UHGV virus genome: UHGV-0148877 | Strand: one strand, 5' to 3' | Origin: a virus | Length of the DNA: 40,227 nucleotides | Part shown: positions 4,660 through 40,227 of the stretch, in pieces | How positions within the stretch are numbered: the stretch's first letter is position 1 | Layout of the letters: each line of letters opens with the position of its first letter | The notes under the pieces: generated by a model | Databases searched by the model: none | The model's input: only the letters and a program-made list of their open reading frames with translations | Told to the model about the DNA's origin: nothing | Position numbers and translations under genes: made by a program

Positions 4660-4679
4660 ATTGCATGGAGAAGATTAAG

Positions 4680-4937
4680 ATGCAGCAGTATCACTATCCA
4701 CTGGAAGACGGATTTACCGAAAGGATTCACACGCCAGAAGGCGTCAGGTCACTGGTGGAGGGATCGCACTTGATGAAATTACTCCGGGATCTCGATAAGG
4801 ATGGATTTAATGTCGATGGCCCACTTGCCGAACTGACTGCACTGATTAACTACGTCACCAGCTCACAGATGTCTATGCAGGATCTGCAAACACATCTCGA
4901 CTATTGTGCCGAACAATTACGAAAACAAACCCGGTAA
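4680..4937 (+). CDS. Small SOS-regulated protein paralogous to the antirepressor C-terminal domain (candidate antirepressor)
   Basis: 85 aa from the ATG at 4680 (GGAGAAG RBS); LexA box directly upstream; aligns by eye (about 40% identity over about 40 residues) with the C-terminal about 70 aa of the Bro-N antirepressor at 6083-6769 (IHTPEGV/IHSPSGV, AELTALINYV/AELTTMFCYI, DLQTHLDY/DIQTHAEY). Confidence 0.5.
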   Translation: MQQYHYPLEDGFTERIHTPEGVRSLVEGSHLMKLLRDLDKDGFNVDGPLAELTALINYVTSSQMSMQDLQTHLDYCAEQLRKQTR

Positions 4938-4939
4938 AT

Positions 4940-4975
4940 TTAAAGGCCGCAAGAGCGGCCTATCGTTTCGCTTTG
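4940..4975. terminator. Bidirectional hairpin terminator between convergent genes
   Basis: AGGCCGC-AAGA-GCGGCCT hairpin flanked by A/T-rich runs on both sides, between the 4680-4937 (+) and 4960-5688 (-) genes. Confidence 0.5.
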
Positions 4976-5688
4976 TGCTCATCCCAGCACGTTTTGCACC
5001 ATGCCATTAAGCCGTCCGCATTTTGATTATTAGGGTAAAAGCTGGTTCGTTTTCTGCGGACATTACAAATTGGGCACCACTTCATATGGCGTGTATTCTT
5101 TGGGCCATCGAGACACCTTGCACACCACTTAGTCAATCCATCTGGATTTTTTGACGATTTCCTGAATTTTTCATATGGAAGGTTTATTCTGCATCGCAAG
5201 CACTGCTTGCTACCACTTGAAACTCTGTTAGCTGATTCTTCTTTTGGCGGCGATACAGAAGGTATTCTTGCTGGCTCTGATACTGCCTGAGGTGCTTTTT
5301 TAGATGACTGAGACGATATGTCATCACCAGGGAATCTTCCATGATATGCCGGACGCGTTGACACTCCAGGTGGAAGCTCAGCTGTAAACGGCTTTGGCTG
5401 AATCAGTTGCCTCTCTTTTGCTAACTCCTGCTGTTTATAATATGTCTGGATTACCGCACTATCATAAGCAGGAGGTGCGGAAATATTAGGCGCATTACCT
5501 CCAGTTTTTTGAAACTGAGTAGAGGTGTGTTCTATCACCTGTGTACGATTAATCGTTATCTCCCCATCTTCGGTCTTTATCGTTTTGTTATGATTAACGA
5601 CCGTACGATCAGAGATCTTAGTCTTGTTCTGGTTGATAACGTAAATAATCACCGCAACCACACCAACAACTATCCAGAAAACTTCCAT
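4960..5688 (-). CDS. Membrane-anchored protein with tandem Cys-rich (zinc-ribbon-like) C-terminal repeats
   Basis: 242 aa; N-terminal TM helix (VFWIVVGVVAVIIYVI), Pro/Ser-rich linker, then two repeats of C-x2-C ... DGL-x2-WC-x2-C (CLRC...DGLTKWCARC; CPIC...DGLMAWCKTC); AT-rich; no family recognised. Confidence 0.55.
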   Translation of the reverse strand: MEVFWIVVGVVAVIIYVINQNKTKISDRTVVNHNKTIKTEDGEITINRTQVIEHTSTQFQKTGGNAPNISAPPAYDSAVIQTYYKQQELAKERQLIQPKPFTAELPPGVSTRPAYHGRFPGDDISSQSSKKAPQAVSEPARIPSVSPPKEESANRVSSGSKQCLRCRINLPYEKFRKSSKNPDGLTKWCARCLDGPKNTRHMKWCPICNVRRKRTSFYPNNQNADGLMAWCKTCWDEHKAKR

Positions 5689-5707
5689 TGCTTTTCCTCA
5701 CAATAAC

Positions 5708-5724
5708 ATTACTTTAAAGGTAAT
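5708..5724. promoter_or_regulatory. Operator-like palindrome ATTACT-TTAAA-GGTAAT
   Basis: 9/10 core match, 20 nt upstream of the start of the minus-strand membrane-protein gene (5688). Confidence 0.4.
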
Positions 5725-5800
5725 ATCTTGCTTTCAGGTGATCAAGCGTTAAACGCAATCAACCAAATACGGTTGATTTTAATATTTCTTCGCGTTTATC

Positions 5801-5817
5801 ATTACCTTTGCGGTAAA
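5801..5817. promoter_or_regulatory. Operator palindrome ATTACC-TTTGC-GGTAAA
   Basis: Perfect TTACC-N5-GGTAA core in the divergent region between the membrane-protein gene and the antirepressor gene. Confidence 0.5.
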
Positions 5818-6082
5818 TTTACATCGCACTCCTCTTGTGCCATAGTAATCGGGCACTGGCAAAATCCAGTGCCGGGATTGGCGTCCCGAGTTACTACAGA
5901 GGCACATATGCCGCATAAGCGGTTTTTTTATGTGTAAAGCGCACCTATTCTATGGTGGGCTGTGTGGGGGCACCGAAAGGTGCGCCGGGTCCTTTGTAGC
6001 CGGTTACGCCAACCCTGCACAGTTCACCACCAACCGATTGGCGTCGGTAGTGGTGATTAACCTAACTACAAAGGTGATCGCT

Positions 6083-6769
6083 ATGACTGCTAACGTAACC
6101 CCATCTGTTTTTCATTTTGAATCAGAAGCAACCATTCGAGCCATTGTTATTGATGGAAATCCTTGGTTTGTTGCCAAAGACGTTATTAAAGCTCTTCAAC
6201 TGACAAACCCCACTATGTCAATAAAATCTCTTGATGATGATGAAAGGGCTAAATTTAACTTAGGCCGTCAAGGCGAAACCAATATTATCAACGAGTCAGG
6301 CCTCTACACACTGATCCTCCGCTGCCGCGACGCAGTGACACCAGGCACTATCCCCTACCGCTTTCGTAAATGGGTTACAGGTGAGGTTCTTCCTCAGATC
6401 CGCCGCACCGGAAGTTACATTAAAAACTCGCTCCCGCAGGAAGAACGCATAAAGATGGTTGCCGACCAGGTAGCCAACGCCACGGCGTCAGCAGTAATGC
6501 AGGCGATGAAGATAGAGAACAAAACCTACAGTGCCCCACTGAAGCCCGGCTACCGCAGCCTGATTCATTCGCCGTCTGGTGTTCTCGGCCTGACGGAGAA
6601 CTCACTGCTGATGAATCTGCTGAACCAGTTACAGGACGACGGGCACGACGTATCGGGCGCGGCGGCGGAGCTGACCACCATGTTCTGCTACATCGTCGGT
6701 GTGAGCAAATGCCTGCGTGATATCCAGACGCACGCGGAGTACATCAACGACAAGGCAGGGTTCTTCTGA
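6083..6769 (+). CDS. Antirepressor with Bro-N domain
   Basis: 228 aa from the ATG at 6083 (AAGGTGA RBS); N-terminus IRAIVIDGNPWFVAKDVIKAL matches the Bro-N pattern; C-terminal domain paralogous to the 4680-4937 product. Confidence 0.8.
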   Translation: MTANVTPSVFHFESEATIRAIVIDGNPWFVAKDVIKALQLTNPTMSIKSLDDDERAKFNLGRQGETNIINESGLYTLILRCRDAVTPGTIPYRFRKWVTGEVLPQIRRTGSYIKNSLPQEERIKMVADQVANATASAVMQAMKIENKTYSAPLKPGYRSLIHSPSGVLGLTENSLLMNLLNQLQDDGHDVSGAAAELTTMFCYIVGVSKCLRDIQTHAEYINDKAGFF

Positions 6770-6777
6770 CGGGCGGC

Positions 6778-6800
6778 GGCACAGGGATGTGCCTTTAAAT
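6778..6800 (+). terminator. Possible intrinsic terminator after the antirepressor gene
   Basis: GGCACA-GGGA-TGTGCC hairpin followed by TTTAAAT. Confidence 0.35.
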
Positions 6801-6813
6801 AATTCTGTACAGA

Positions 6814-6842
6814 TTGCAGACTGTGGGTGAATAGCGTACTAT
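6814..6842 (+). promoter_or_regulatory. Sigma70-like promoter (TTGCAG-17-TACTAT) overlapping an operator
   Basis: -35 TTGCAG at 6814-6819, 17-bp spacer, -10 TACTAT at 6837-6842; the palindrome at 6841-6857 overlaps the -10 and start region. Confidence 0.45.
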
Positions 6843-6857
6843 TACCTCAAGGGTAAA
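6841..6857. promoter_or_regulatory. Operator palindrome ATTACC-TCAAG-GGTAAA
   Basis: Perfect TTACC-N5-GGTAA core overlapping the -10 of the promoter that reads into the toxin-antitoxin-like pair. Confidence 0.5.
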
Positions 6858-6916
6858 CGGATTGGTTTCATTTTTATTAATCCGTGTAATGAACTTATGA
6901 GATATGAGGTAATGTC

Positions 6917-7096
6917 ATGCGAAACGAAAAATTGCAGATGCGTAGAGCGCAAGCTGCCGCAAGACGTTCTTTCAATGGAAGCGTAGAGTGCGTAAAAGTT
7001 ACTATGACAAAAGATCACGCAAGTCGCGTATCCCGCGCTTTCTTTGATTCTCGTAACAATAAGGAAAATTATGAGTTCGTCTGCGTCGCAGAATGA
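6917..7096 (+). CDS. Small basic protein, candidate antitoxin (below the ORF-track cut-off)
   Basis: 59 aa (MRNEKLQMRRAQAAARRSF...), ATG with GAGGTAAT RBS; overlaps the start of the downstream toxin-like gene by 26 nt, the usual antitoxin-toxin arrangement. Confidence 0.3.
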   Translation: MRNEKLQMRRAQAAARRSFNGSVECVKVTMTKDHASRVSRAFFDSRNNKENYEFVCVAE

Positions 7097-7616
7097 TAAA
7101 AATCAAATTGTCAGATATAAGGGTCGAGTATTGCATACGCAAAATTTCTCGGCCCTTTGTGCATCTGATCTTGAGCTGAAGAAAGTATCTGATGCCTTTA
7201 CCCAGTATTGGAAAACGGGATACCATCCATCTCTTGGTAAAGATGCTGCATTTGCTCGTCCGACAGAAATGCTTAAACTAAATGTCAGGCATACTCATGT
7301 CGATAACCAAGACTATATTCCAGAAGATAGTGATAAAAAACACACTGGTAAAAAATCATCTTGGGATGCATGGAAAAAAATAGCGTCTGTGCAAGTAAAA
7401 TGCATACCAACAAGTAATTGCTTTTTAGTTTATTCGGTAAATCACAATCGTGATGCGCTGGTTATGTTTTTTGTTGACGCAGATGCCCACAACATAACTG
7501 AGCAAGAAGAGTTTAAAGAGGCAGCAATCACTATCAGTTATCAATTCTTTGAGAAAACAAAAACAGAACCAATGCCTTTAGAAGAAGATCTTTTTTCTGA
7601 TAAATGGAAGGAATAA
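7071..7616 (+). CDS. YafO-like toxin-family protein (putative ribosome-dependent mRNA interferase)
   Basis: 181 aa from the ATG at 7071 (AAGGAAAA RBS); segments DAFTQYWKTGYHPSLGKDAAF, LKLNVRHTHV and CFLVYSVNHNRDALVMFFV resemble the conserved blocks I recall for YafO-family toxins; AT-rich; family assignment is from memory. Confidence 0.45.
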   Translation: MSSSASQNDKNQIVRYKGRVLHTQNFSALCASDLELKKVSDAFTQYWKTGYHPSLGKDAAFARPTEMLKLNVRHTHVDNQDYIPEDSDKKHTGKKSSWDAWKKIASVQVKCIPTSNCFLVYSVNHNRDALVMFFVDADAHNITEQEEFKEAAITISYQFFEKTKTEPMPLEEDLFSDKWKE

Positions 7617-7711
7617 GCCCGCGCCGCGGGCTTTTTTGTGGACGAAACAAAAGTCAGTGCTACACTCATTGACGCCACATTGAGGTGGATTATAGATGGA
7701 AATTTTTCACA

Positions 7712-7873
7712 ATGAAAAAAGCATTTGCTGCACTGTTCGTTTTGTTGTCTCTGGTAGCTTCAACTCAGGCCTTTGCCGGTCGTTGTCAGCACGACAGCGA
7801 TACTGCCGCTGACGGCTCCCGCTGCGGTGGGCGTTCTGCGGATTCCCGTCCGGGCGGCGGTGGCATTCGTTAA
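7712..7873 (+). CDS. Small secreted peptide (signal peptide plus about 31-aa Gly/Arg/Asp-rich mature part with 2 Cys)
   Basis: MKKAFAALFVLLSLVASTQAFA then GRCQHDSDTAADGSRCGG...; classical signal peptide with AFA-G cleavage site; followed at once by a hairpin terminator. Confidence 0.4.
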   Translation: MKKAFAALFVLLSLVASTQAFAGRCQHDSDTAADGSRCGGRSADSRPGGGGIR

Positions 7874-7900
7874 AAACAAGGCCGCGAAAGCGGCCTGTTT
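7872..7900. terminator. Bidirectional intrinsic terminator
   Basis: AAGGCCGC-GAAA-GCGGCCT hairpin with A-run upstream and T-run downstream, between convergent genes 7712-7873 (+) and 7903-8754 (-). Confidence 0.6.
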
Positions 7901-7902
7901 GA

Positions 7903-8754
7903 TCACTGTGCAGTTTTCGCTGATCGATTTTCAGCTCTAAATTCAAGAACCGTTTCAATATTTCTTTCCTTCAGCATATCAATAACATTTTTATTCATTT
8001 GACTATCACTGGTTAATAACTGGTAAACGTTGCTTCTCTCTTTATCAGAGTTTTCTTTAACAGCTGCTTTGCATGCCAAATGCTTATTGAAATTTTCTAC
8101 ATCGCTAGTACAGGAATTTACGGCTGCTGATGAAATATCAGACGCTGAAGAAACACCGTCATCCAAACGTTTTATAGCATTTTCTATACATGAGTTAAGG
8201 GAATAAACGACAACTGAGCGATACCCTTCAGACGCACACCATTCTAAATTTCTTGAAGGATCGAGTGGTTTTACTTCGCTGGATTGAATTAACTTGTCAA
8301 AAACTGACTTATATTCAATCTGTTTTTTATCTATAGCCCATACTTCAGTAGCTGATTTATAATTCCCCGTATGCCTATTAACATCAAATCCATGTTTTAT
8401 AAGCAAATCTGCCCATGAAAGATTTATTGATTCATTGTTATGAGGCCATTTTCCTGTCAGAACCGCCCCCATAGACCCCATATATCCGCCATATGATGGT
8501 ATAGCACCATGGCTCAGTAACTTCTCTGCAACCACAGGGCAATTAATTACATAAGAGGCGTAAAGCCCATTCCATAAAGCCCCTCTATAGTAATCGCCAC
8601 GATTAGGTTCTTTTAAGTCGATAGCCTTTGATAATTGTTCGCACGTTTTGCATGCATCAAAGTTATCCTTATTGCATTGCAATGAACTGGCAGCTGTAGG
8701 ATTTACAGAGACTATTGAAAGCACTATGCCAAAAAACAAATTTATTTTTTTCAT
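7903..8754 (-). CDS. Secreted Cys-containing protein of unknown function
   Basis: 283 aa; N-terminal signal peptide MKKINLFFGIVLSIVSVNPTAASS; about 8 Cys; strongly AT-rich relative to the structural genes; ATG 1 nt after the stop of the 1129-aa protein gene. Confidence 0.6.
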   Translation of the reverse strand: MKKINLFFGIVLSIVSVNPTAASSLQCNKDNFDACKTCEQLSKAIDLKEPNRGDYYRGALWNGLYASYVINCPVVAEKLLSHGAIPSYGGYMGSMGAVLTGKWPHNNESINLSWADLLIKHGFDVNRHTGNYKSATEVWAIDKKQIEYKSVFDKLIQSSEVKPLDPSRNLEWCASEGYRSVVVYSLNSCIENAIKRLDDGVSSASDISSAAVNSCTSDVENFNKHLACKAAVKENSDKERSNVYQLLTSDSQMNKNVIDMLKERNIETVLEFRAENRSAKTAQ

Positions 8755-34616: not shown

Positions 34617-34643
34617 GTAAGCCGCCTTCTGGCGGCTTTTTTA
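34617..34643 (+). terminator. Intrinsic terminator after the repressor gene
   Basis: GCCGCC-TTCT-GGCGGC hairpin followed by TTTTTTATT. Confidence 0.65.
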
Positions 34644-34688: not shown

Positions 34689-34733
34689 ATTGACATCAAA
34701 CCAGATACGCATAATTATTACCTCAACGGTAAC
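34689..34733 (+). promoter_or_regulatory. Left-arm promoter region with TTGACA and operator ATTACC-TCAAC-GGTAAC
   Basis: TTGACA at 34689-34694; palindrome at 34717-34733; extra GGTAAC half-site at 34741-34746; precedes the first plus-strand early ORF. Confidence 0.5.
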
Positions 34734-34906: not shown

Positions 34907-35206
34907 ATGAACGTTAATCAGCAGAAAAATCTTCAAAAAATCATGCTGGCATTCGACAAGGACTACCGTCTGTCAGAACAGCTATATGACCGACAAGTTG
35001 AACTGATTGAGAGTATCCGGCTTCATCAACTGGCATCAACTTTCGACGTTGTAACAGTTAAAGGCGTTCGCCAGGAAGTACTGGAGGCCGCTAAAGACAG
35101 CCCTGAGTTCGAAGAACTAATGGATGCCTACCGGCGCGAGGCAATGGCAATTATCGCCCGCTGGGATCTGGCTGATCAGCTTGATGGGCAGAGGGACGCG
35201 GCATGA
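34907..35206 (+). CDS. Hypothetical early protein
   Basis: 99 aa from the ATG at 34907 (GGGAGGG RBS); stop overlaps the start of the exonuclease gene (ATGA). Confidence 0.5.
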   Translation: MNVNQQKNLQKIMLAFDKDYRLSEQLYDRQVELIESIRLHQLASTFDVVTVKGVRQEVLEAAKDSPEFEELMDAYRREAMAIIARWDLADQLDGQRDAA

Positions 35207-36024
35207 AACCGGGAATTTATTTCGACATCAGCAACGAAGACTACCACGCCGGTGACGGCGTGAGTAAGTCGCAACTGGACATGGTTGCCAAGAATCCGGC
35301 GCTTCTTAAATGGGTTCAGGCAGCACCAGAAGACGAAGAGAAAAAGTCTGCACTGGATATGGGAACCGCATTGCACTGTCTGCTTCTGGAGCCTGGAGAG
35401 TTCGACAAACGCTTCATTGTTTCACCGAAATTCGATCGTCGGACGAAACAAGGTAAAGCTGACGAAGAGGAATTTCTTCGTGATGTGGCGGATATGGGGA
35501 TTACGGTACTTGATGCCGAGCAGTGGCGGAAACTGGAGCTGATGCGTGATAGCGCAATGGCTCACCCGGCGGCACGCTGGATGCTGGAAGCACCTGGTTA
35601 CTGCGAAGCATCAATGTACTGGAACGATGAAGAGACGGGGGAGTTGTGCCGAATTCGTCCAGACAAATGGCTGAACGAGCACAACGTGATCGTCGACGTG
35701 AAAAAGGTTGCAGATATGGACCGTTTTGCACGCCACATCGAGGAATTCCGCTACCACGTGCAGGACGCAATGTACCGCGAAGGCGCAATGAGGGTTACTG
35801 GTCAGCCGCATGGTTTTTTCTTTCTTGCCGTGAGCGAAAGCATTGATTGTGGTCGGTATCCGGTACGCGTGTTCGAGCTGGATGCGCAGGATGTCGATGC
35901 CGGGCACGCTCTGTTCCGCCGGGATCTGAATACCTATCACGAATGCCGCATCAATGATGAATGGGGCGGTGTGGAAATCATTAAACGCCCTGAGTGGGCA
36001 CGCAAACAGGATATGTACATATGA
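35203..36024 (+). CDS. PD-(D/E)XK-family exonuclease (RecE-like recombination partner)
   Basis: 273 aa; motif IRPDKW...VIVDVKKV consistent with a PD-(D/E)XK nuclease; translationally coupled (ATGA) to the RecT gene. Confidence 0.65.
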   Translation: MKPGIYFDISNEDYHAGDGVSKSQLDMVAKNPALLKWVQAAPEDEEKKSALDMGTALHCLLLEPGEFDKRFIVSPKFDRRTKQGKADEEEFLRDVADMGITVLDAEQWRKLELMRDSAMAHPAARWMLEAPGYCEASMYWNDEETGELCRIRPDKWLNEHNVIVDVKKVADMDRFARHIEEFRYHVQDAMYREGAMRVTGQPHGFFFLAVSESIDCGRYPVRVFELDAQDVDAGHALFRRDLNTYHECRINDEWGGVEIIKRPEWARKQDMYI

Positions 36025-36962
36025 GCAACGACATCGCAAACATCAACGCACCAGTAGACACAGCAATCGCTGGAACTGCTGCAACTATTTTCAGCCCAGA
36101 CGGCTTGAACCAACTGATGAAATTCGCCGAGGTAATGGCGCAAAGCCGCGTAACTGTACCGGCGCACCTCGCCGGGAAACCAGCTGATTGCATGGCCGTG
36201 GCAATGCAGGCTGCGCAGTGGGGAATGAACCCGTTTGCCGTGGCTCAGAAAACCCATGTTGTGAACGGCACGCTAGGTTATGAAGCCCAATTAGTAAACG
36301 CAGTTATCTCAACGATGTCGCCAACAAAAGATCGCATCAACTACGAGTGGTTCGGGCCGTGGGAACGCGTGATCGGTAAGTTTGTTGAGAAAACATCCAA
36401 AAACGGCAATCCATATATCGCACCAGGCTGGACTCTAAAAGACGAAGAAGGCTGCGGTGTTCGCGTATGGGCAACCATGAAGGGCGAGGATCAACCTCGA
36501 GTGCTTGAGTTAATGCTGTCTCAAGCACAGGTAAGAAACTCCACACTTTGGGCCAGTGATCCGAAACAACAACTCGCATACCTTGCGACAAAACGCTGGT
36601 CTCGCCTGCACTGTCCTGACGTAATCATGGGCGTCTACACCCCAGACGAATTACAGGAAACGGCACCGCGCGTTGAGCGAGACATTACTCCGCAAACGAC
36701 CACTGCTGCGGGAATGAACAGTCTGATCAACGCTAAACCAGCGAAAAAGCCTGATGAGCAAACGCGTAAATCGGACAGCCGTGATCCAGAAGAAATGCTG
36801 ATGGCCTTTACCAGCGCAGCGATTAATTACAGCACTGTCTCCGAACTGGATAAGGCTTACAAATACATTGCACAAAAACTTTCAGATGATGACGAACTGC
36901 TGGCAAAAGCCACCGACGTTTACAGCGTTCGTCGGGAAGAATTAAACGAAACATCTATGTAA
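36021..36962 (+). CDS. recT: RecT-family single-strand annealing protein
   Basis: About 313 aa from the ATG at 36021; conserved-looking RecT core (NPFAVAQKTHVVNGTLGYEAQL..., LWASDPKQQLAYLATKRW) and acidic C-terminus; paired with the upstream exonuclease. Confidence 0.8.
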   Translation: MSNDIANINAPVDTAIAGTAATIFSPDGLNQLMKFAEVMAQSRVTVPAHLAGKPADCMAVAMQAAQWGMNPFAVAQKTHVVNGTLGYEAQLVNAVISTMSPTKDRINYEWFGPWERVIGKFVEKTSKNGNPYIAPGWTLKDEEGCGVRVWATMKGEDQPRVLELMLSQAQVRNSTLWASDPKQQLAYLATKRWSRLHCPDVIMGVYTPDELQETAPRVERDITPQTTTAAGMNSLINAKPAKKPDEQTRKSDSRDPEEMLMAFTSAAINYSTVSELDKAYKYIAQKLSDDDELLAKATDVYSVRREELNETSM

Positions 36963-37011: not shown

Positions 37012-37260
37012 ATGAAAGGTGCATTAGGTAAGAAGGAACTCCTGGCGGTGGTTCCACTGTCATGGAGCACTATCGACCGTATGGAGCGCGCAGGGGAATT
37101 TCCTAAACGCTGGTATATCACCGATAAACGCTGCGCATGGAACCGTGATGAAGTTGAGCGTTGGCTTGATGAACGTCAGGCAGCAAGCCCGGCAGAGTTC
37201 CAGGGTAAAAAGCCTCCTGTTCAGCAACGTGTATATCGTCCCGTGAGCAACGCTGCATGA
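37012..37260 (+). CDS. AlpA-family transcriptional regulator / excisionase-like protein
   Basis: 82 aa; LLAVVPLSWSTIDRMERAGEFPKRWYITDKRCAWNRDEVERWL matches the AlpA/Xis small HTH pattern. Confidence 0.7.
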   Translation: MKGALGKKELLAVVPLSWSTIDRMERAGEFPKRWYITDKRCAWNRDEVERWLDERQAASPAEFQGKKPPVQQRVYRPVSNAA

Positions 37261-37373
37261 GTGAGCTGCTAAGGCACTGGAGCAAATGGTCAGGATGGTA
37301 CTTATTCCTGGCCTCTGTTTCAGCATGGCTTTATCTACTGGCATTAATTTTCAGAGAGGGTTGGATTAAGTGA
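37257..37373 (+). CDS. Small hydrophobic peptide (below the ORF-track cut-off)
   Basis: 38 aa (MSELLRHWSKWSGWYLFLASVSAWLYLLALIFREGWIK), one predicted TM helix; ATG overlaps the AlpA stop (ATGA) and its stop overlaps the next start (GTGA). Confidence 0.25.
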   Translation: MSELLRHWSKWSGWYLFLASVSAWLYLLALIFREGWIK

Positions 37374-37669
37374 GAAAGTTAAGCCGACTTGAAAAATATC
37401 ACATGAATAAGGTTTCAATGCGCAGTCCGTCAAAGATTGTCGCCGTTACTCCTGCGGCGATAGAGATCGAAAAACGCGCGATTGAAAGAGAGAAAAAAGG
37501 GCAATTCCGCATTGCCGCTCACCTTTGGCTTCAGTGTATGGATGTTGCTTCTGGTGATGTTGAACGTGCAAGGATCGCGGTTCGCAGGGACCAATGTATC
37601 ACAAAAGGTAACGGCCTTCGCCGTGGCGACTATAGCGGAATAGGATGTTGTGGGGTGGTTTATGACTAA
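37370..37669 (+). CDS. Small regulator-like protein (PerC/ANR-like pattern)
   Basis: 99 aa; AAHLWLQCMDVASGDVERARIAVRRDQCI resembles the A-x2-LW-x2-C...ER...AR...C pattern I recall for small PerC/ANR-type regulators; low-confidence family call. Confidence 0.35.
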   Translation: MRKLSRLEKYHMNKVSMRSPSKIVAVTPAAIEIEKRAIEREKKGQFRIAAHLWLQCMDVASGDVERARIAVRRDQCITKGNGLRRGDYSGIGCCGVVYD

Positions 37670-38312
37670 GAAATACACACTAATCTATGCAGATCCACCC
37701 TGGGTATACCGGGACAAAGCCGCAGATGGTAATCGCGGTGCCGGTTTTAAATATCCGGTTATGAGTGTGCTGGATATCTGCCGCCTTCCTGTGTGGGATT
37801 TGGCCGATGAAAACTGTCTGTTGGCCATGTGGTGGGTGCCAACACAACCACTCGAAGCACTAAAAGTTGTTGAAGCCTGGGGATTCCGTCTGATGACGAT
37901 GAAGGGCTTCACGTGGATAAAATGTGGTAGTCGACAACCAGATAAACTGGTTATGGGTATGGGACACATGACTCGCGCCAATAGTGAAGATTGCCTGTTT
38001 GCGGTAAAGGGAAAACTACCTACGCGCATTAATGCAGGGATCGTTCAGTCATTTACCGCACCGCGGCTTGAGCATTCAAGAAAGCCAGATATCGTTCGTG
38101 AAAAACTTGTGCAATTATTAGGCGATGTTTCTCGCATTGAACTGTTCGCCCGCCAGACGTCTCATGGATTCGATGTTTGGGGTAATCAGTGCGAAGACCC
38201 GGCAGTGCAACTACACCCTGGATACGCGTTGGATATCGGCGGATTAACAAATGCATTCAGCAATGCTCCGCTGTCACCAACAGACAACCAGGGGCGGGAG
38301 CGTGCAGCATGA
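37662..38312 (+). CDS. MT-A70-family N6-adenine DNA methyltransferase (orphan)
   Basis: About 216 aa from the ATG at 37662; catalytic DPPW motif (YADPPWVY) near the N-terminus; no restriction-endonuclease-like gene adjacent. Confidence 0.85.
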
Positions 38313-38968
38313 ACCTATATCAACGCATCAATGGCGCTGACTGGTGCAATATCTTCGTCGTCGGCGATCTGCATGGGTGCTACACGCTGCTGATGAACGA
38401 ACTCGACAAAGTTTCATTCGACCCGGCGCGCGATTTGCTTATTTCCGTTGGTGACCTTGTTGACCGCGGCGCTGAAAACGTCGAATGCCTGGATTTGATT
38501 ACTATGCCGTGGTTCCGAGCTGTTCGTGGCAACCATGAGCAGATGATGCTGGATGCACTGGTCAACGGCGGAAGTTTCGGACATTGGATGTCAAACGGCG
38601 GTGGATGGTGGCACCAACTTGATTCTGAGCAGGATGTGCAACTCAAATACCTTCTGCCAAAGGTTGCCAACCTCCCGATGATTATCGAACTGGTTACCGG
38701 CAATAAGAAGGTCGTCATCTGCCACGCAGACTACCCGCACAACGAATACGCATTCGATAAGCCAGTACCGGAAGAAATGGTGATATGGAATCGTGAGCGG
38801 GTTAGCGACGCGCAGGACGGTATTGTCTCGGAGATAACCGGTGCCGATTTGTTCATCTTCGGTCATACGCCAGCACATCACCCACTGGTGTATGCAAACC
38901 AAATGTACATCGACACCGGCGCAGTGTTCTGCGGAAATCTGACGCTTACCAAAGTCCAGGAAGGATAG
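38309..38968 (+). CDS. Ser/Thr protein phosphatase (lambda-phosphatase / calcineurin-like family)
   Basis: About 219 aa from the ATG at 38309 (overlaps MTase stop); metallophosphatase motifs GDLHG, GDLVDRG, GNHE. Confidence 0.85.
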
Positions 38969-38970
38969 AA

Positions 38971-40227
38971 TTATTTATTACTGTCTTCCATCCACTTCTC
39001 AAACTTCGACGGGGAGAACGGAATCAGATCCGTATGCTCCCCGTCAATCCAGGAATCAATCATATCTGCCCACTGCTGCAACATGTAGGCGCGCTGTCTG
39101 GCGTATTCCGCTTTGTTATATACGGCGCGCACACCTTTCTGCTCATGTGCCAGAGCCTTTTCAATCCAGTCTGAAGGATAACCAGCCTCATGCAACAACG
39201 TACTGGCTGTACGGCGCATATCGTGTACGGTGAAGTCCTGAATATGCTCACCATCTTCATTTATTATTTTCACCGTTCTGTCGATCAGAGAGTTCAACGC
39301 GGCATTAGATAATGGCTTACGGAAATTGTAACGACCAGGAACCAGGTATTCACTTCCACCAGCGCACATCTGCAACCCGACCAATATATCCTGTGCCTGT
39401 TTAGGCAGGTAAATAACGTGCGCCCGGCTTCCTTTCATGCGGTCTGAAGGAATTGTCCATGTCCATTTTTTAAAATCTATTTCATCCCACGTTGCATTGG
39501 TGAATTCGCCTTTACGAACCATAGTGATAAGCACCAACTTTAAAGCCATTTTCATAGTGCCCATAGCACCAATGGCATCCAGCGTGCGGAAGAACAGGCC
39601 AATTTCTTCTGGCGTCAGTGTTCGCTCTCGTGGTTTAAATATGGCGATAGACGAAGGTTTAATGTCAGCCGCAGGATTAAACAAACCATGACCACGGTCA
39701 TTGGCGTGACGGTATACGCTGCTGATGATCTCCCTGGCCTGCACTGCTGTTGCCCGACCACCGCGTTCGACAATCCGGTCACACAAATCACGAACCATCG
39801 ATGTGGTAATTTCAGTCATCATTTTGTTGCCAAGAACCGGAAGTATGTCACGGTCGATCACCGCCTGCTTCATTGCGCGGGTACTGTCAGCCAGGATGAC
39901 ATGTTTCATATAACTGTCGGTATGTACCGCAAACGTCTCGGCACCACGAATCTTTTTGATACCGTCACGTTTAGCCGCAGCCGGCGACTGGCCTGCTTTA
40001 AGCAGCTTCTTTGCAGCAATCAGTTCTTCTCGCGCTTCTGCCAGGCTGATACCGTCACGCCCATACTGCCCGATTACCAGTGTTTCGCGGCGACCGTTGA
40101 TACGGTAGTCATAGCGAAACGAGACCGTGCCTGACGTAAGCACAGCTACATACAGCCCGTCACGATCGGAGACCTTATAAAGTTTGTCCTGCGGCTTGAG
40201 GTTTTTTAATTTTGTATCGGTAAGCAC
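38971..40227 (-). CDS. int: Tyrosine integrase (site-specific recombinase)
   Basis: 418 aa; N-terminus LTDTKLKNLKPQDK...SFRYDYRINGRRETL and C-terminal catalytic region (HDMRRT...HE...Y) typical of phage integrases; ORF starts at the window edge (GTG), so the first codon is uncertain. Confidence 0.85.
   Translation of the reverse strand: MLTDTKLKNLKPQDKLYKVSDRDGLYVAVLTSGTVSFRYDYRINGRRETLVIGQYGRDGISLAEAREELIAAKKLLKAGQSPAAAKRDGIKKIRGAETFAVHTDSYMKHVILADSTRAMKQAVIDRDILPVLGNKMMTEITTSMVRDLCDRIVERGGRATAVQAREIISSVYRHANDRGHGLFNPAADIKPSSIAIFKPRERTLTPEEIGLFFRTLDAIGAMGTMKMALKLVLITMVRKGEFTNATWDEIDFKKWTWTIPSDRMKGSRAHVIYLPKQAQDILVGLQMCAGGSEYLVPGRYNFRKPLSNAALNSLIDRTVKIINEDGEHIQDFTVHDMRRTASTLLHEAGYPSDWIEKALAHEQKGVRAVYNKAEYARQRAYMLQQWADMIDSWIDGEHTDLIPFSPSKFEKWMEDSNK

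Follow-up and report, generated by a model that had tools for sequence, protein, structure and literature searches.

An MT-A70 methyltransferase and a NinI-type phosphatase apparently juxtaposed by cassette exchange in a phiV10-like Escherichia coli prophage

Two neighbouring genes at the integrase end of a 40,227-nucleotide stretch of viral DNA (the whole stretch analysed, hereafter the window) encode an MT-A70 adenine methyltransferase and a lambda-type protein phosphatase. Comparative evidence indicates that they are unrelated accessory genes juxtaposed by gene-cassette exchange, and that their pairing is ordinary. We consider it probable that the locus comprises two independent accessory genes, one for a Dam-like GATC DNA methyltransferase and the other a NinI captured by such an exchange. 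The two families are familiar among phage accessory genes, some deposited phage genomes already annotate both genes side by side, and their coupling is generic.

Layout of the locus and integrity of the two genes

As judged from genome alignments, the locus forms the distal end of the early-left (recombination) operon in an E. coli prophage of the phiV10/epsilon15-like type (Uetakevirus). Phages PAS61 and BP9 share 98% nucleotide identity with the window and carry the identical methyltransferase–phosphatase pair, annotated as such in both, while phiV10 matches the window at 98% nucleotide identity up to position 38,314. A promoter-like sequence found purely by consensus scan (TTGACA-17-AATTAT; positions 34,690–34,718, forward strand) is a candidate for the start of the operon that ends in the two genes; the repressor-gene terminator at 34,619–34,638 lies 5' of it, and an equivalent terminator is annotated in phiV10. 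At the other end, a P4-type tyrosine integrase (38,971–40,227, reverse strand; Pfam Arm-DNA-bind_3, Phage_int_M and Phage_integrase) is convergent with the operon, lying 2 nt past the phosphatase stop codon and having its start codon at the end of the window. The integrase gene is 98% identical in nucleotide sequence to phiV10 int, and its position bears out the placement of the two genes next to an integrase that had been proposed from the letters alone.

The methyltransferase gene (37,662–38,312, forward strand, ATG to TGA) encodes a single-domain MT-A70 (beta-class) N6-adenine methyltransferase of 216 aa. The protein matches Pfam MT-A70 (PF05063) across profile positions 1–172 of 172 (E = 2.6e-22; 80 bits against a cut-off of 23.9) and PADLOC MTase_II (E = 2.7e-77), with Tetrahymena MTA1 (4e-13) and METTL3 (6e-06) as its best matches in the PDB. 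Catalytic motif IV, DPPW, can be read directly at aa 11–14 (37,692–37,703, forward strand) and occupies a column that is invariant or near-invariant across 20 homologues; the assignment to MT-A70 with a DPPW motif made in the sequence-only reading is confirmed. The motif precedes the SAM-binding region, with the RIELFAR / WGNQ block at aa 158–176, in the circular permutation of the beta class, and the columns of that block are invariant among 20 homologues. In the homologue from phage phiPA8, mutation of DPPW to APPA abolishes function (PMC10810198). The alignments mark the C-terminal tail segment (aa 188–216; 38,223–38,312, forward strand) as a mosaic boundary: it is approximately 95% conserved at the nucleotide level even beside methyltransferase cores with just 52% identity. 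Compared with the enzyme of locus L041, the gene has a pN of 0.10 and a pS of 0.69, and purifying selection acts on it.

The downstream gene (38,309–38,968, forward strand, ATG to TAG) encodes a NinI / lambda-type Mn-dependent Ser/Thr(/Tyr) protein phosphatase of 219 aa. As the earlier reading had supposed, the enzyme is of the lambda-phosphatase family: it aligns without gaps to lambda phosphatase (1G5B; residues 1–217 to 1–217, E = 9e-100, 67% identity), and D20, H22, D49, R53, N75, H76, H139 and H186 are identical in the two proteins, leaving all catalytic residues and the dinuclear-metal active site intact. The PPP motifs GDLHG, GDLVDRG and GNHE are all present, and the protein matches Pfam Metallophos (E = 1e-15), PHROG 246 'NinI-like' (E = 6.6e-108) and the NinI of HK225 (80% amino acid identity). 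The host enzymes PrpA/PrpB (PphA/PphB) were rejected as identifications, with both NCBIfam equivalogs scoring below cut-off (265.9 against 326 bits for PRK11439 and 221.3 against 332 for PRK09968). The enzyme presumably dephosphorylates host phosphoproteins, and a literature search for an in vivo role of NinI returned nothing past its non-essentiality. For both genes, homologues support the ATG starts given here instead of GTG 37,650 and GTG 38,189, with which the mechanically listed longest open reading frames begin. With their catalytic motifs intact, and with the methyltransferase under purifying selection, both genes look functional.

A stop/start overlap at the edge of an exchanged cassette

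The two genes overlap by 4 nt, ATGA, at 38,309–38,312, as had been read from the sequence, and GGGAG precedes the overlap at 38,296–38,300. A three-way alignment shows that this stop/start overlap lies within an 8-nt microhomology, CAGCATGA (38,305–38,312, forward strand), which is common to the window, the methyltransferase–DUF1382 junction of phiV10 and the ninE–ninI junction of HK225, and which forms the left breakpoint of an exchanged cassette. The cassette itself spans 673 bp (38,315–38,987, forward strand); its flanks are 98–99% identical to phiV10 and its interior is unrelated, phiV10 having a 203-bp DUF1382 segment in its place. The right end of the cassette alters the final few codons of the integrase, which reads ...KWMEDSNK in the window versus ...KWMAGE in phiV10. 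A NinI orthologue would thus have been captured from a lambdoid nin region through recombination at the 8-nt stop/start overlap, and the phosphatase would now occupy a polymorphic cargo slot between methyltransferase and integrase in which most relatives carry DUF1382.

The distribution of the two genes is in line with such a slot. Among E. coli records matching at no less than 95% identity, the phosphatase is found in 144 of 543, the remainder being nearly all DUF1382 in the sampled records, and 20 IMG/VR loci with a methyltransferase at least 96% identical comprise 5 with the phosphatase, 14 with DUF1382 and 1 with other cargo. Each is often found where its neighbour in the window is missing. 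NinI homologues in a nin context reach up to 91% amino acid identity to the phosphatase (L140), and in all 26 of the phosphatase homologues at or below 91% identity that have no adjacent MT-A70 gene, an integrase of this type is also absent. Junctions of the window type recur in L090 and L136–L143, and those of the ninE type in L140 and L141. No methyltransferase–phosphatase pair was found outside the epsilon15-like backbone in 80 methyltransferase-centred and 80 phosphatase-centred IMG/VR loci.

The sequence-only reading had proposed that the tight coupling may reflect a host-takeover module. In its strongest form, this would make the methyltransferase and phosphatase a co-evolved, translationally coupled unit with mutually dependent activities, which we regard as extremely improbable. 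The ATGA overlap and the GGGAG Shine–Dalgarno sequence inside the methyltransferase gene do guarantee co-expression, 143 of 5,426 complete E. coli genomes have the arrangement, and it persists with integrases at 80–90% and phosphatases at 84–96% identity. Furthermore, the order methyltransferase–phosphatase–integrase is kept down to approximately 80% amino acid identity beside three different methyltransferase cores (L136–L138, L142 and L143), and since it is kept in diverged lineages, the pairing is no one-off accident and selection for it is possible. On the other hand, approximately three-quarters of the prophages with this methyltransferase carry DUF1382, not the phosphatase, at the identical junction; phosphatase homologues at or below 91% identity occur without an MT-A70 neighbour, those of L140 and L141 having junctions of the ninE–ninI type, as in HK225; and, among the 80 methyltransferase-centred loci, MT-A70 genes of more distant kinship have no phosphatase beside them.

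Nor does the overlap single out this pair. Overlaps occur at seven of the eight gene junctions of the operon, five of them an exact [A/G]TGA, and this generic packing weighs against reading the coupling as a takeover module. In phiV10, and in approximately three-quarters of the E. coli prophages with this methyltransferase, the same ATGA links the methyltransferase gene to a DUF1382 gene encoding 64 aa; in lambdoid nin regions, NinI is ATGA-coupled to ninE; and elsewhere MT-A70 genes are flanked by 4-nt overlaps beside dozens of unrelated neighbours. The claim of a functional methyltransferase–phosphatase module is therefore not supported either, since NinI comes with an ATGA that it already had at the ninE–ninI junction of lambdoid phages and each gene is common alone. 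The overlap appears to reflect generic gene packing and swapping in this operon and gives no sign of joint enzyme action. Under independent capture of the phosphatase, the locus offers a clean, base-resolved case of modular exchange at stop/start overlaps, in which the 8-nt CAGCATGA would double as translational-coupling signal and recombination joint.

Substrate of the methyltransferase

The methyltransferase had been called an orphan with no restriction endonuclease beside it, and the search for an adjacent cognate enzyme with Pfam, PADLOC and PHROGs upheld this: no restriction-endonuclease-like protein was found in the non-structural open reading frames of this 40-kb prophage, a result to be read with the provisos that profiles can miss restriction enzymes and that five open reading frames lack annotation. 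The rest of the window aligns to the annotated phage PAS61. What the search for a cognate endonuclease hit was a RusA/DUF1064-type resolvase, the RecE-like PD-(D/E)XK exonuclease that belongs to the recombination module and, at 4,960–5,688, a weak Lar/EndoVII-like match of the Zn-ribbon kind. The description 'anti-restriction or regulatory orphan' is plausible and needs updating with the published relatives.

The closest of these is M.EcoPA8orf6770P, the gp5 protein of the Stx2a phage phiPA8 (Gong, Chakraborty & Koudelka, NAR 2024; PMC10810198). Over aa 1–187, the window protein is identical to the phiPA8-type enzyme in L041 at 155 of 187 residues (83%), L041 being taken as phiPA8-type from the published gp7–gp6 terminator sequence that it bears. 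To methylate 16S rRNA in 30S subunits, M.EcoPA8orf6770P must be bound to PNB-2, the product of a gene directly upstream that overlaps its own by 4 nt; gp5 together with PNB-2 raises spontaneous prophage induction, and the purified enzyme barely methylates DNA in vitro, dam- DNA included (PMC10810198). M.EcoGV, from an O104:H4 Stx phage, is given as methylating GATC in vivo in PMC10810198 and in Table 3 of PMC6602927, and the former describes it as 'highly similar' to M.EcoPA8orf6770P; the phiPA8 authors consider its GATC methylation to be possibly an over-expression artefact (PMC10810198). Serratia phage BZS1 p32 and M.EfaBMDam of Tn1549 are likewise GATC-specific MT-A70 enzymes (PMC7556043). 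An HK639 homologue of BZS1 p32 is 45% identical to the window methyltransferase, too distant for a safe transfer of specificity. The non-specific phage adenine methyltransferases Hia5/Hin1523 were ruled out as MT-A70 relatives, being alpha-class, DPPY and Dam-like (PMC3299994).

By analogy with these enzymes, we favour GATC methylation of DNA, with partner-dependent RNA methylation as its main rival. Against GATC as the target stand the scant DNA methylation by the purified phiPA8 enzyme and the doubt of its authors about M.EcoGV. The methyltransferase would belong to the M.EcoGV / M.EcoPA8orf6770P clade, be produced from the early-left operon and, reasoning from its relatives, methylate the adenine in GATC on DNA, a Dam-like activity supplied by a different structural class from that of host Dam. 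Replicating or recombining phage DNA may in this way be kept fully GATC-methylated and hence shielded from GATC-directed restriction and from nicking by MutH. Elsewhere, MT-A70 genes adjoin other orphan DNA methyltransferases with DPPY, PCQ or a second DPPW, an association that fits a role in DNA modification. The window contains 157 GATC sites (approximately 3.9 per kb; observed/expected 0.75), an unremarkable number that argues neither way on the target. If the target is GATC, a comparison of lysogen and cured methylomes in a Dam+ host would yield no new motif.

If the enzyme modified DNA without being specific for GATC, through either a new short motif or a relaxed specificity, it would act as a classical anti-restriction 'vaccine'; we hold this to be very unlikely. 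The protein is very small, at 216 aa, and a separate target-recognition domain is absent; prophage-encoded methyltransferases are frequently promiscuous (PMC4659465); and the loop at aa 87–102 has at least two variants and an insertion form within the family, so that specificities may differ. The window enzyme nevertheless carries the same loop variant as the Stx-phage / M.EcoGV type. Moreover, as far as the sources cited above report, M.EcoGV, BZS1 p32 and M.EfaBMDam are all the MT-A70 enzymes of bacteria and phages with a reported DNA target, and all three recognize GATC.

Unlikely, by our estimate, is that the protein is the catalytic subunit of a phiPA8-like, partner-dependent RNA methyltransferase with a partner other than PNB-2. 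The 83% core identity to the phiPA8-type enzyme, variable loop included, speaks for this explanation, as do the general requirement of MT-A70 enzymes for partners and the directly upstream, overlapping position of the phiPA8 partner (PMC10810198). An upstream gene overlaps the methyltransferase in the window too. It runs 8 nt into the methyltransferase gene and encodes a small PerC-like protein, 99 aa from a GTG start (37,370–37,669, forward strand; Pfam PerC PF06069, E = 6e-07), which is the obvious candidate for the partner. The protein matches PHROG 868 'transcriptional activator' (E = 5.7e-62) and is assigned to the PerC family in RefSeq genome annotations; in phiV10 the annotation starts at an internal ATG and gives 88 aa. 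Further weight comes from two in-frame PerC::MT-A70 fusions that occur naturally (P0003 and P0001), along with a wHTH+PerC protein encoded in L078 upstream of an MT-A70 gene whose product is 44% identical; Pfam gives PerC for the L078 protein and a weak HTH_11 match for PNB-2.

Several observations count against an RNA-methylating holoenzyme. Searches of the window by tblastn with the 143-aa form of PNB-2 from L041 (3,573–4,004) and with a 76-aa variant returned no PNB-2 homologue. The PerC-like protein was considered as a diverged PNB-2 and set aside, as BLASTP detected no similarity between them. The approximately 27-aa C-terminal tail of M.EcoPA8orf6770P has been proposed to mediate formation of the PNB-2 holoenzyme (PMC10810198), and the tail of the window methyltransferase differs from that of the Stx-phage enzyme. 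In related phages, genes for DUF1382, DUF1317 or DGQHR proteins separate PerC and methyltransferase; the adjacency of the two therefore belongs to the phage backbone and does not define a fixed pair. The PerC::MT-A70 fusions, for their part, are single-contig events for which one frameshift in the 8-nt overlap would be enough.

A broader proposal, which we judge improbable, is that the MT-A70 protein, small as it is, works as a plug-in catalytic subunit whose substrate, be it GATC DNA, rRNA or another, is set by a small nucleic-acid-binding protein encoded immediately upstream. That protein would be PNB-2 in Stx phages, the PerC-like protein in the window and DGQHR/ParB-like or DUF1317 proteins elsewhere, with the backbone-specific C-terminal tail serving as the docking element. 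If this were true, the methyltransferase of the window would join with the PerC-like protein in a regulator that works by methylation, has not been recognised before and controls prophage induction or the expression of host genes.

This prophage lends itself to deciding if the clade by default methylates DNA in the manner of Dam or methylates RNA, a matter that bears on the spontaneous induction of Stx and other prophages. The methyltransferase allele occurs free of a PNB-2 partner in approximately 10% of complete E. coli genomes (5,426 in the collection; 543 of 624 matching records, those at 95% identity or more).

Comparison with characterized enzymes and phages

M.EcoPA8orf6770P resembles the window methyltransferase in being a single-domain MT-A70 protein with an N-terminal DPPW and the same type of variable loop, and in the place of its gene, which lies towards the integrase end of a temperate phage of E. 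coli and has its start overlapped by an upstream gene. The two differ in that the alignment stops at aa 187, the tails beyond it being unrelated; in that DUF1382 is the usual downstream neighbour of M.EcoPA8orf6770P, whereas the phosphatase lies downstream in the window; and in their phages, phiPA8 having a 933W-like lambdoid backbone and the window being a phiV10-type podovirus. M.EcoGV, PhiBZS1_p32 and M.EfaBMDam share with the window protein the Pfam family, small size, orphan status and a phage- or transposon-borne position near an integrase (PMC7556043; PMC6602927). However, the BZS1/HK639 branch is only approximately 45% identical, and the kinship of M.EcoGV with the window protein runs through its published likeness to M.EcoPA8orf6770P, as described in the source cited for it above.

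For the phosphatase, the likeness to lambda NinI (orf221; 1G5B) and to the NinI proteins of HK225 and phi80 is full-length, with metal-binding and catalytic residues all kept, and HK225 NinI is ATGA-coupled to its upstream gene, as the window phosphatase is. In HK225, NinI stands in the canonical ninE-ninI-...-rusA-Q context of the nin region, with the replication genes on one side and Q on the other, whereas the window phosphatase closes the early-left operon, between methyltransferase and int and outside any nin region. A location in the nin region is a positional and not a biochemical feature, and its absence is therefore no argument against NinI orthology. The nearest relatives of the locus as a whole are phiV10, PAS61 and BP9, with which the window shares 98% identity in the backbone, the methyltransferase, the integrase and the PerC-like gene; in phiV10, gp33–gp32 are the methyltransferase and DUF1382, which at the same junction takes the place of the phosphatase, as it does in most relatives.

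The prophage and its rightward operon

The window is a phiV10/epsilon15-like (Uetakevirus) E. coli prophage, clipped so that position 1 falls at the Rz lysis gene and position 40227 at the integrase start codon. Alignment to phage vB_EcoP_PAS61 covers approximately two thirds of the window, mostly at 96–99% nucleotide identity with two segments at approximately 87%; the tail/tailspike and cargo region (approximately 5–15 kb), the O-antigen-modification region (approximately 1.9–4.1 kb) and part of 28.2–30.6 kb do not align. PAS61 lacks a four-gene cargo island (4665–8754) that lies between tailspike and tail genes in the window. The island comprises genes for a Bro-N protein (5930–6769), for a protein with a membrane anchor and two Zn-ribbon repeats that weakly resemble the N-termini of Lar restriction-alleviation proteins and EndoVII (4960–5688, minus strand) and for a 283-aa product whose sole assignment is PHROG 6118 (7903–8754, minus strand), together with an ORF weakly similar to the YafO toxin (7044–7616).

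The methyltransferase and phosphatase genes are the last two of a nine-gene rightward operon, which starts past the terminator of the repressor gene (34619–34638) at a promoter-like site (34690–34718). As the sequence-only reading had described, they share an ATGA overlap (38309–38312) and lie at the integrase end. A GGGAG Shine-Dalgarno lies within the methyltransferase gene, 8 nt before the overlap, and a P4-type integrase (38971–40227, minus strand) converges on the pair 2 nt past the phosphatase stop. The likely excisionase of this integrase is an AlpA-like gene (37012–37260). No plus-strand terminator is predicted from the phosphatase stop to the convergent integrase (38968–40227), and early-left transcripts would therefore cross int in antisense orientation.

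Overlaps occur at seven of the eight operon junctions, five of them exact 4-nt [A/G]TGA overlaps, including the recE-like/recT junction at ATG 36021, and the PerC-like gene (37370–37669) runs 8 nt into the methyltransferase start. Among 80 methyltransferase-centred IMG/VR loci, MT-A70 genes likewise carry 4-nt overlaps on both sides, with dozens of unrelated genes as neighbours. The methyltransferase–phosphatase coupling is generic.

In the same operon, the recE-like PD-(D/E)XK gene (35203–36024) and recT (region 35203–36962) occupy distinct ORFs, in different reading frames, that meet at an ATGA. At this place a single 586-aa RecE-RecT fusion is annotated in phiV10 and two 'RecT' genes in PAS61, a discrepancy that may reflect a frameshift in one record or a real fusion in phiV10.

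Exchange at the phosphatase slot

Identity between the window and phiV10 is 98–99% through 38314 and resumes at that level from 38988; between these flanks phiV10 has a 64-aa DUF1382 gene starting at the identical ATGA. A three-way alignment finds CAGCATGA (38305–38312) common to the window, the methyltransferase–DUF1382 junction of phiV10 and the ninE–ninI junction of the lambdoid phage HK225, which therefore places the left crossover in this 8-nt microhomology, itself a stop/start overlap. ATGA coupling to the preceding gene is also seen for the phosphatase in its nin-region context, where homologues reach 91% amino acid identity (IMG/VR locus L140). At its right end the cassette changes the final few codons of the integrase gene.

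Across complete E. coli genomes, a query made up of the PerC-like gene, methyltransferase and phosphatase has 543 matching records at 95% identity or more. The phosphatase is also covered in 144, and almost all of the sampled remainder carry DUF1382. The order methyltransferase–phosphatase–integrase recurs in diverged lineages (phosphatase-centred loci L136–L138, L142 and L143), with integrases 80–90%, phosphatases 84–96% and methyltransferase cores 52–83% identical. The last approximately 30 methyltransferase codons (38223–38312; approximately 2410–2504 in L136–L143) stay approximately 95% identical in nucleotides, even beside a core with only 52% amino acid identity and a 24-aa insertion. 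This pattern marks a mosaic or recombination boundary, located at the WGNQC block, which is conserved; the methyltransferase tail travels with the downstream cargo and integrase, not with the core. Since both the order and the tail are retained in diverged lineages, the phosphatase allele is an alternative of long standing in this phage group, inherited stably.

The pair is already annotated in PAS61, BP9 and 143 RefSeq genomes. The pairing is not a one-off, yet each of the genes is also common in the absence of the other; this, the operon-wide overlaps and the DUF1382 gene at the same ATGA speak against the proposal that the two are functionally coupled as a host-takeover module. No line of evidence links the phosphatase to the methyltransferase.

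Other neighbours recur beside MT-A70 genes. A DUF1317 small protein (approximately 50–60 aa) is encoded directly upstream with a 4-nt overlap, the ORF extending 3 nt past the methyltransferase start, at L026, L028, L029, L031, L046, L049, L051, L052 and L080, the L080 methyltransferase being only 44% identical to that of the window. For DUF1382, linkage to MT-A70 genes takes three different forms and occurs in two phage types. A 355-aa DGQHR/DndB-like (ParB-fold) gene lies between the PerC-like and MT-A70 genes in E. coli VTB96929v (L087, 1899–2966) and Salmonella phage SPC32H (L088, 1437–2504), overlapping the methyltransferase start by 4 nt; its product may be an alternative nucleic-acid-binding partner.

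Candidate functions of the two enzymes

The phosphatase (ATG 38309 to TAG 38968, 219 aa) gives a gap-free alignment with lambda phosphatase 1G5B (E 9e-100, 67% identity) in which all metal-binding and catalytic residues are conserved, and is predicted to be an intact lambda-type Mn-dependent phosphoprotein phosphatase. The literature establishes no in-vivo role for NinI. PrpA and PrpB, its paralogues in the host, act as modulators of envelope-stress signalling, and the phage enzyme may reset host phosphorylation during lytic growth.

The methyltransferase (ATG 37662 to TGA 38312, 216 aa) matches Pfam MT-A70 over the whole profile (E 2.6e-22), with DPPW at aa 11–14; among solved structures its best matches are Tetrahymena MTA1 and human METTL3. 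Comparison with the Stx-phage allele indicates purifying selection (pN 0.10 versus pS 0.69). Both family assignments made from the sequence alone are borne out, as is orphan status: no restriction-type nuclease adjoins the gene, and Pfam, PADLOC and PHROGs found none in all ORFs outside the PAS61 annotation, a result that, with five ORFs lacking any annotation, amounts to absence of evidence. Several Stx2a phage records (LC616075.1, LC616042.1 and others) match only aa 94–187, a pattern that fits the gp5 allele reported for phage phiPA2, which is interrupted by IS629.

The MT-A70/DPPW protein gp5 of Stx2a phage phiPA8, studied by Gong, Chakraborty and Koudelka (PMC10810198), has almost no DNA methyltransferase activity in vitro when alone. 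Its partner in a 1:1 complex is PNB-2, a winged-helix protein whose gene lies immediately upstream, and the complex prefers 16S rRNA and 30S subunits; the gp5 gene also raises spontaneous prophage induction. Partner-dependent RNA methylation is the main rival reading for the window enzyme, with the upstream PerC-like protein as the obvious candidate partner. Two natural in-frame PerC::methyltransferase fusions, P0003 (297 aa) and P0001 (263 aa), each on a single contig, are weak hints in this direction; they could signal an interaction in Rosetta-stone fashion or have arisen by simple frameshifting within the 8-nt overlap. The PerC-like protein is, however, unrelated to PNB-2, and in sister phages DUF1382, DUF1317 or the DGQHR/DndB-like gene separates it from the methyltransferase.

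By analogy with characterized relatives, we favour Dam-like DNA (GATC) methylation, a specificity that a methylome comparison of lysogen versus cured strain would miss in a Dam+ host. M.EcoGV, highly similar to the phiPA8 enzyme, methylates GATC in vivo when over-produced (PMC10810198), the MT-A70 enzyme of Serratia phage BZS1 is GATC-specific (PMC7556043), and the same specificity is cited there for M.EfaBMDam of Tn1549. The BZS1 enzyme has a homologue in HK639 that shares 45% identity with the window protein. The phiPA8-type enzyme (L041–L043, recognized by the published terminator sequence) is 83% identical over aa 1–187 and shares the variable-loop type, but its C-terminal tail differs. 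It is this different tail, together with the failure to find a PNB-2 homologue in the window prophage and the recurrence of GATC across the whole bacterial MT-A70 clade, that favours a Dam-like activity over the RNA-directed one of the phiPA8 complex.
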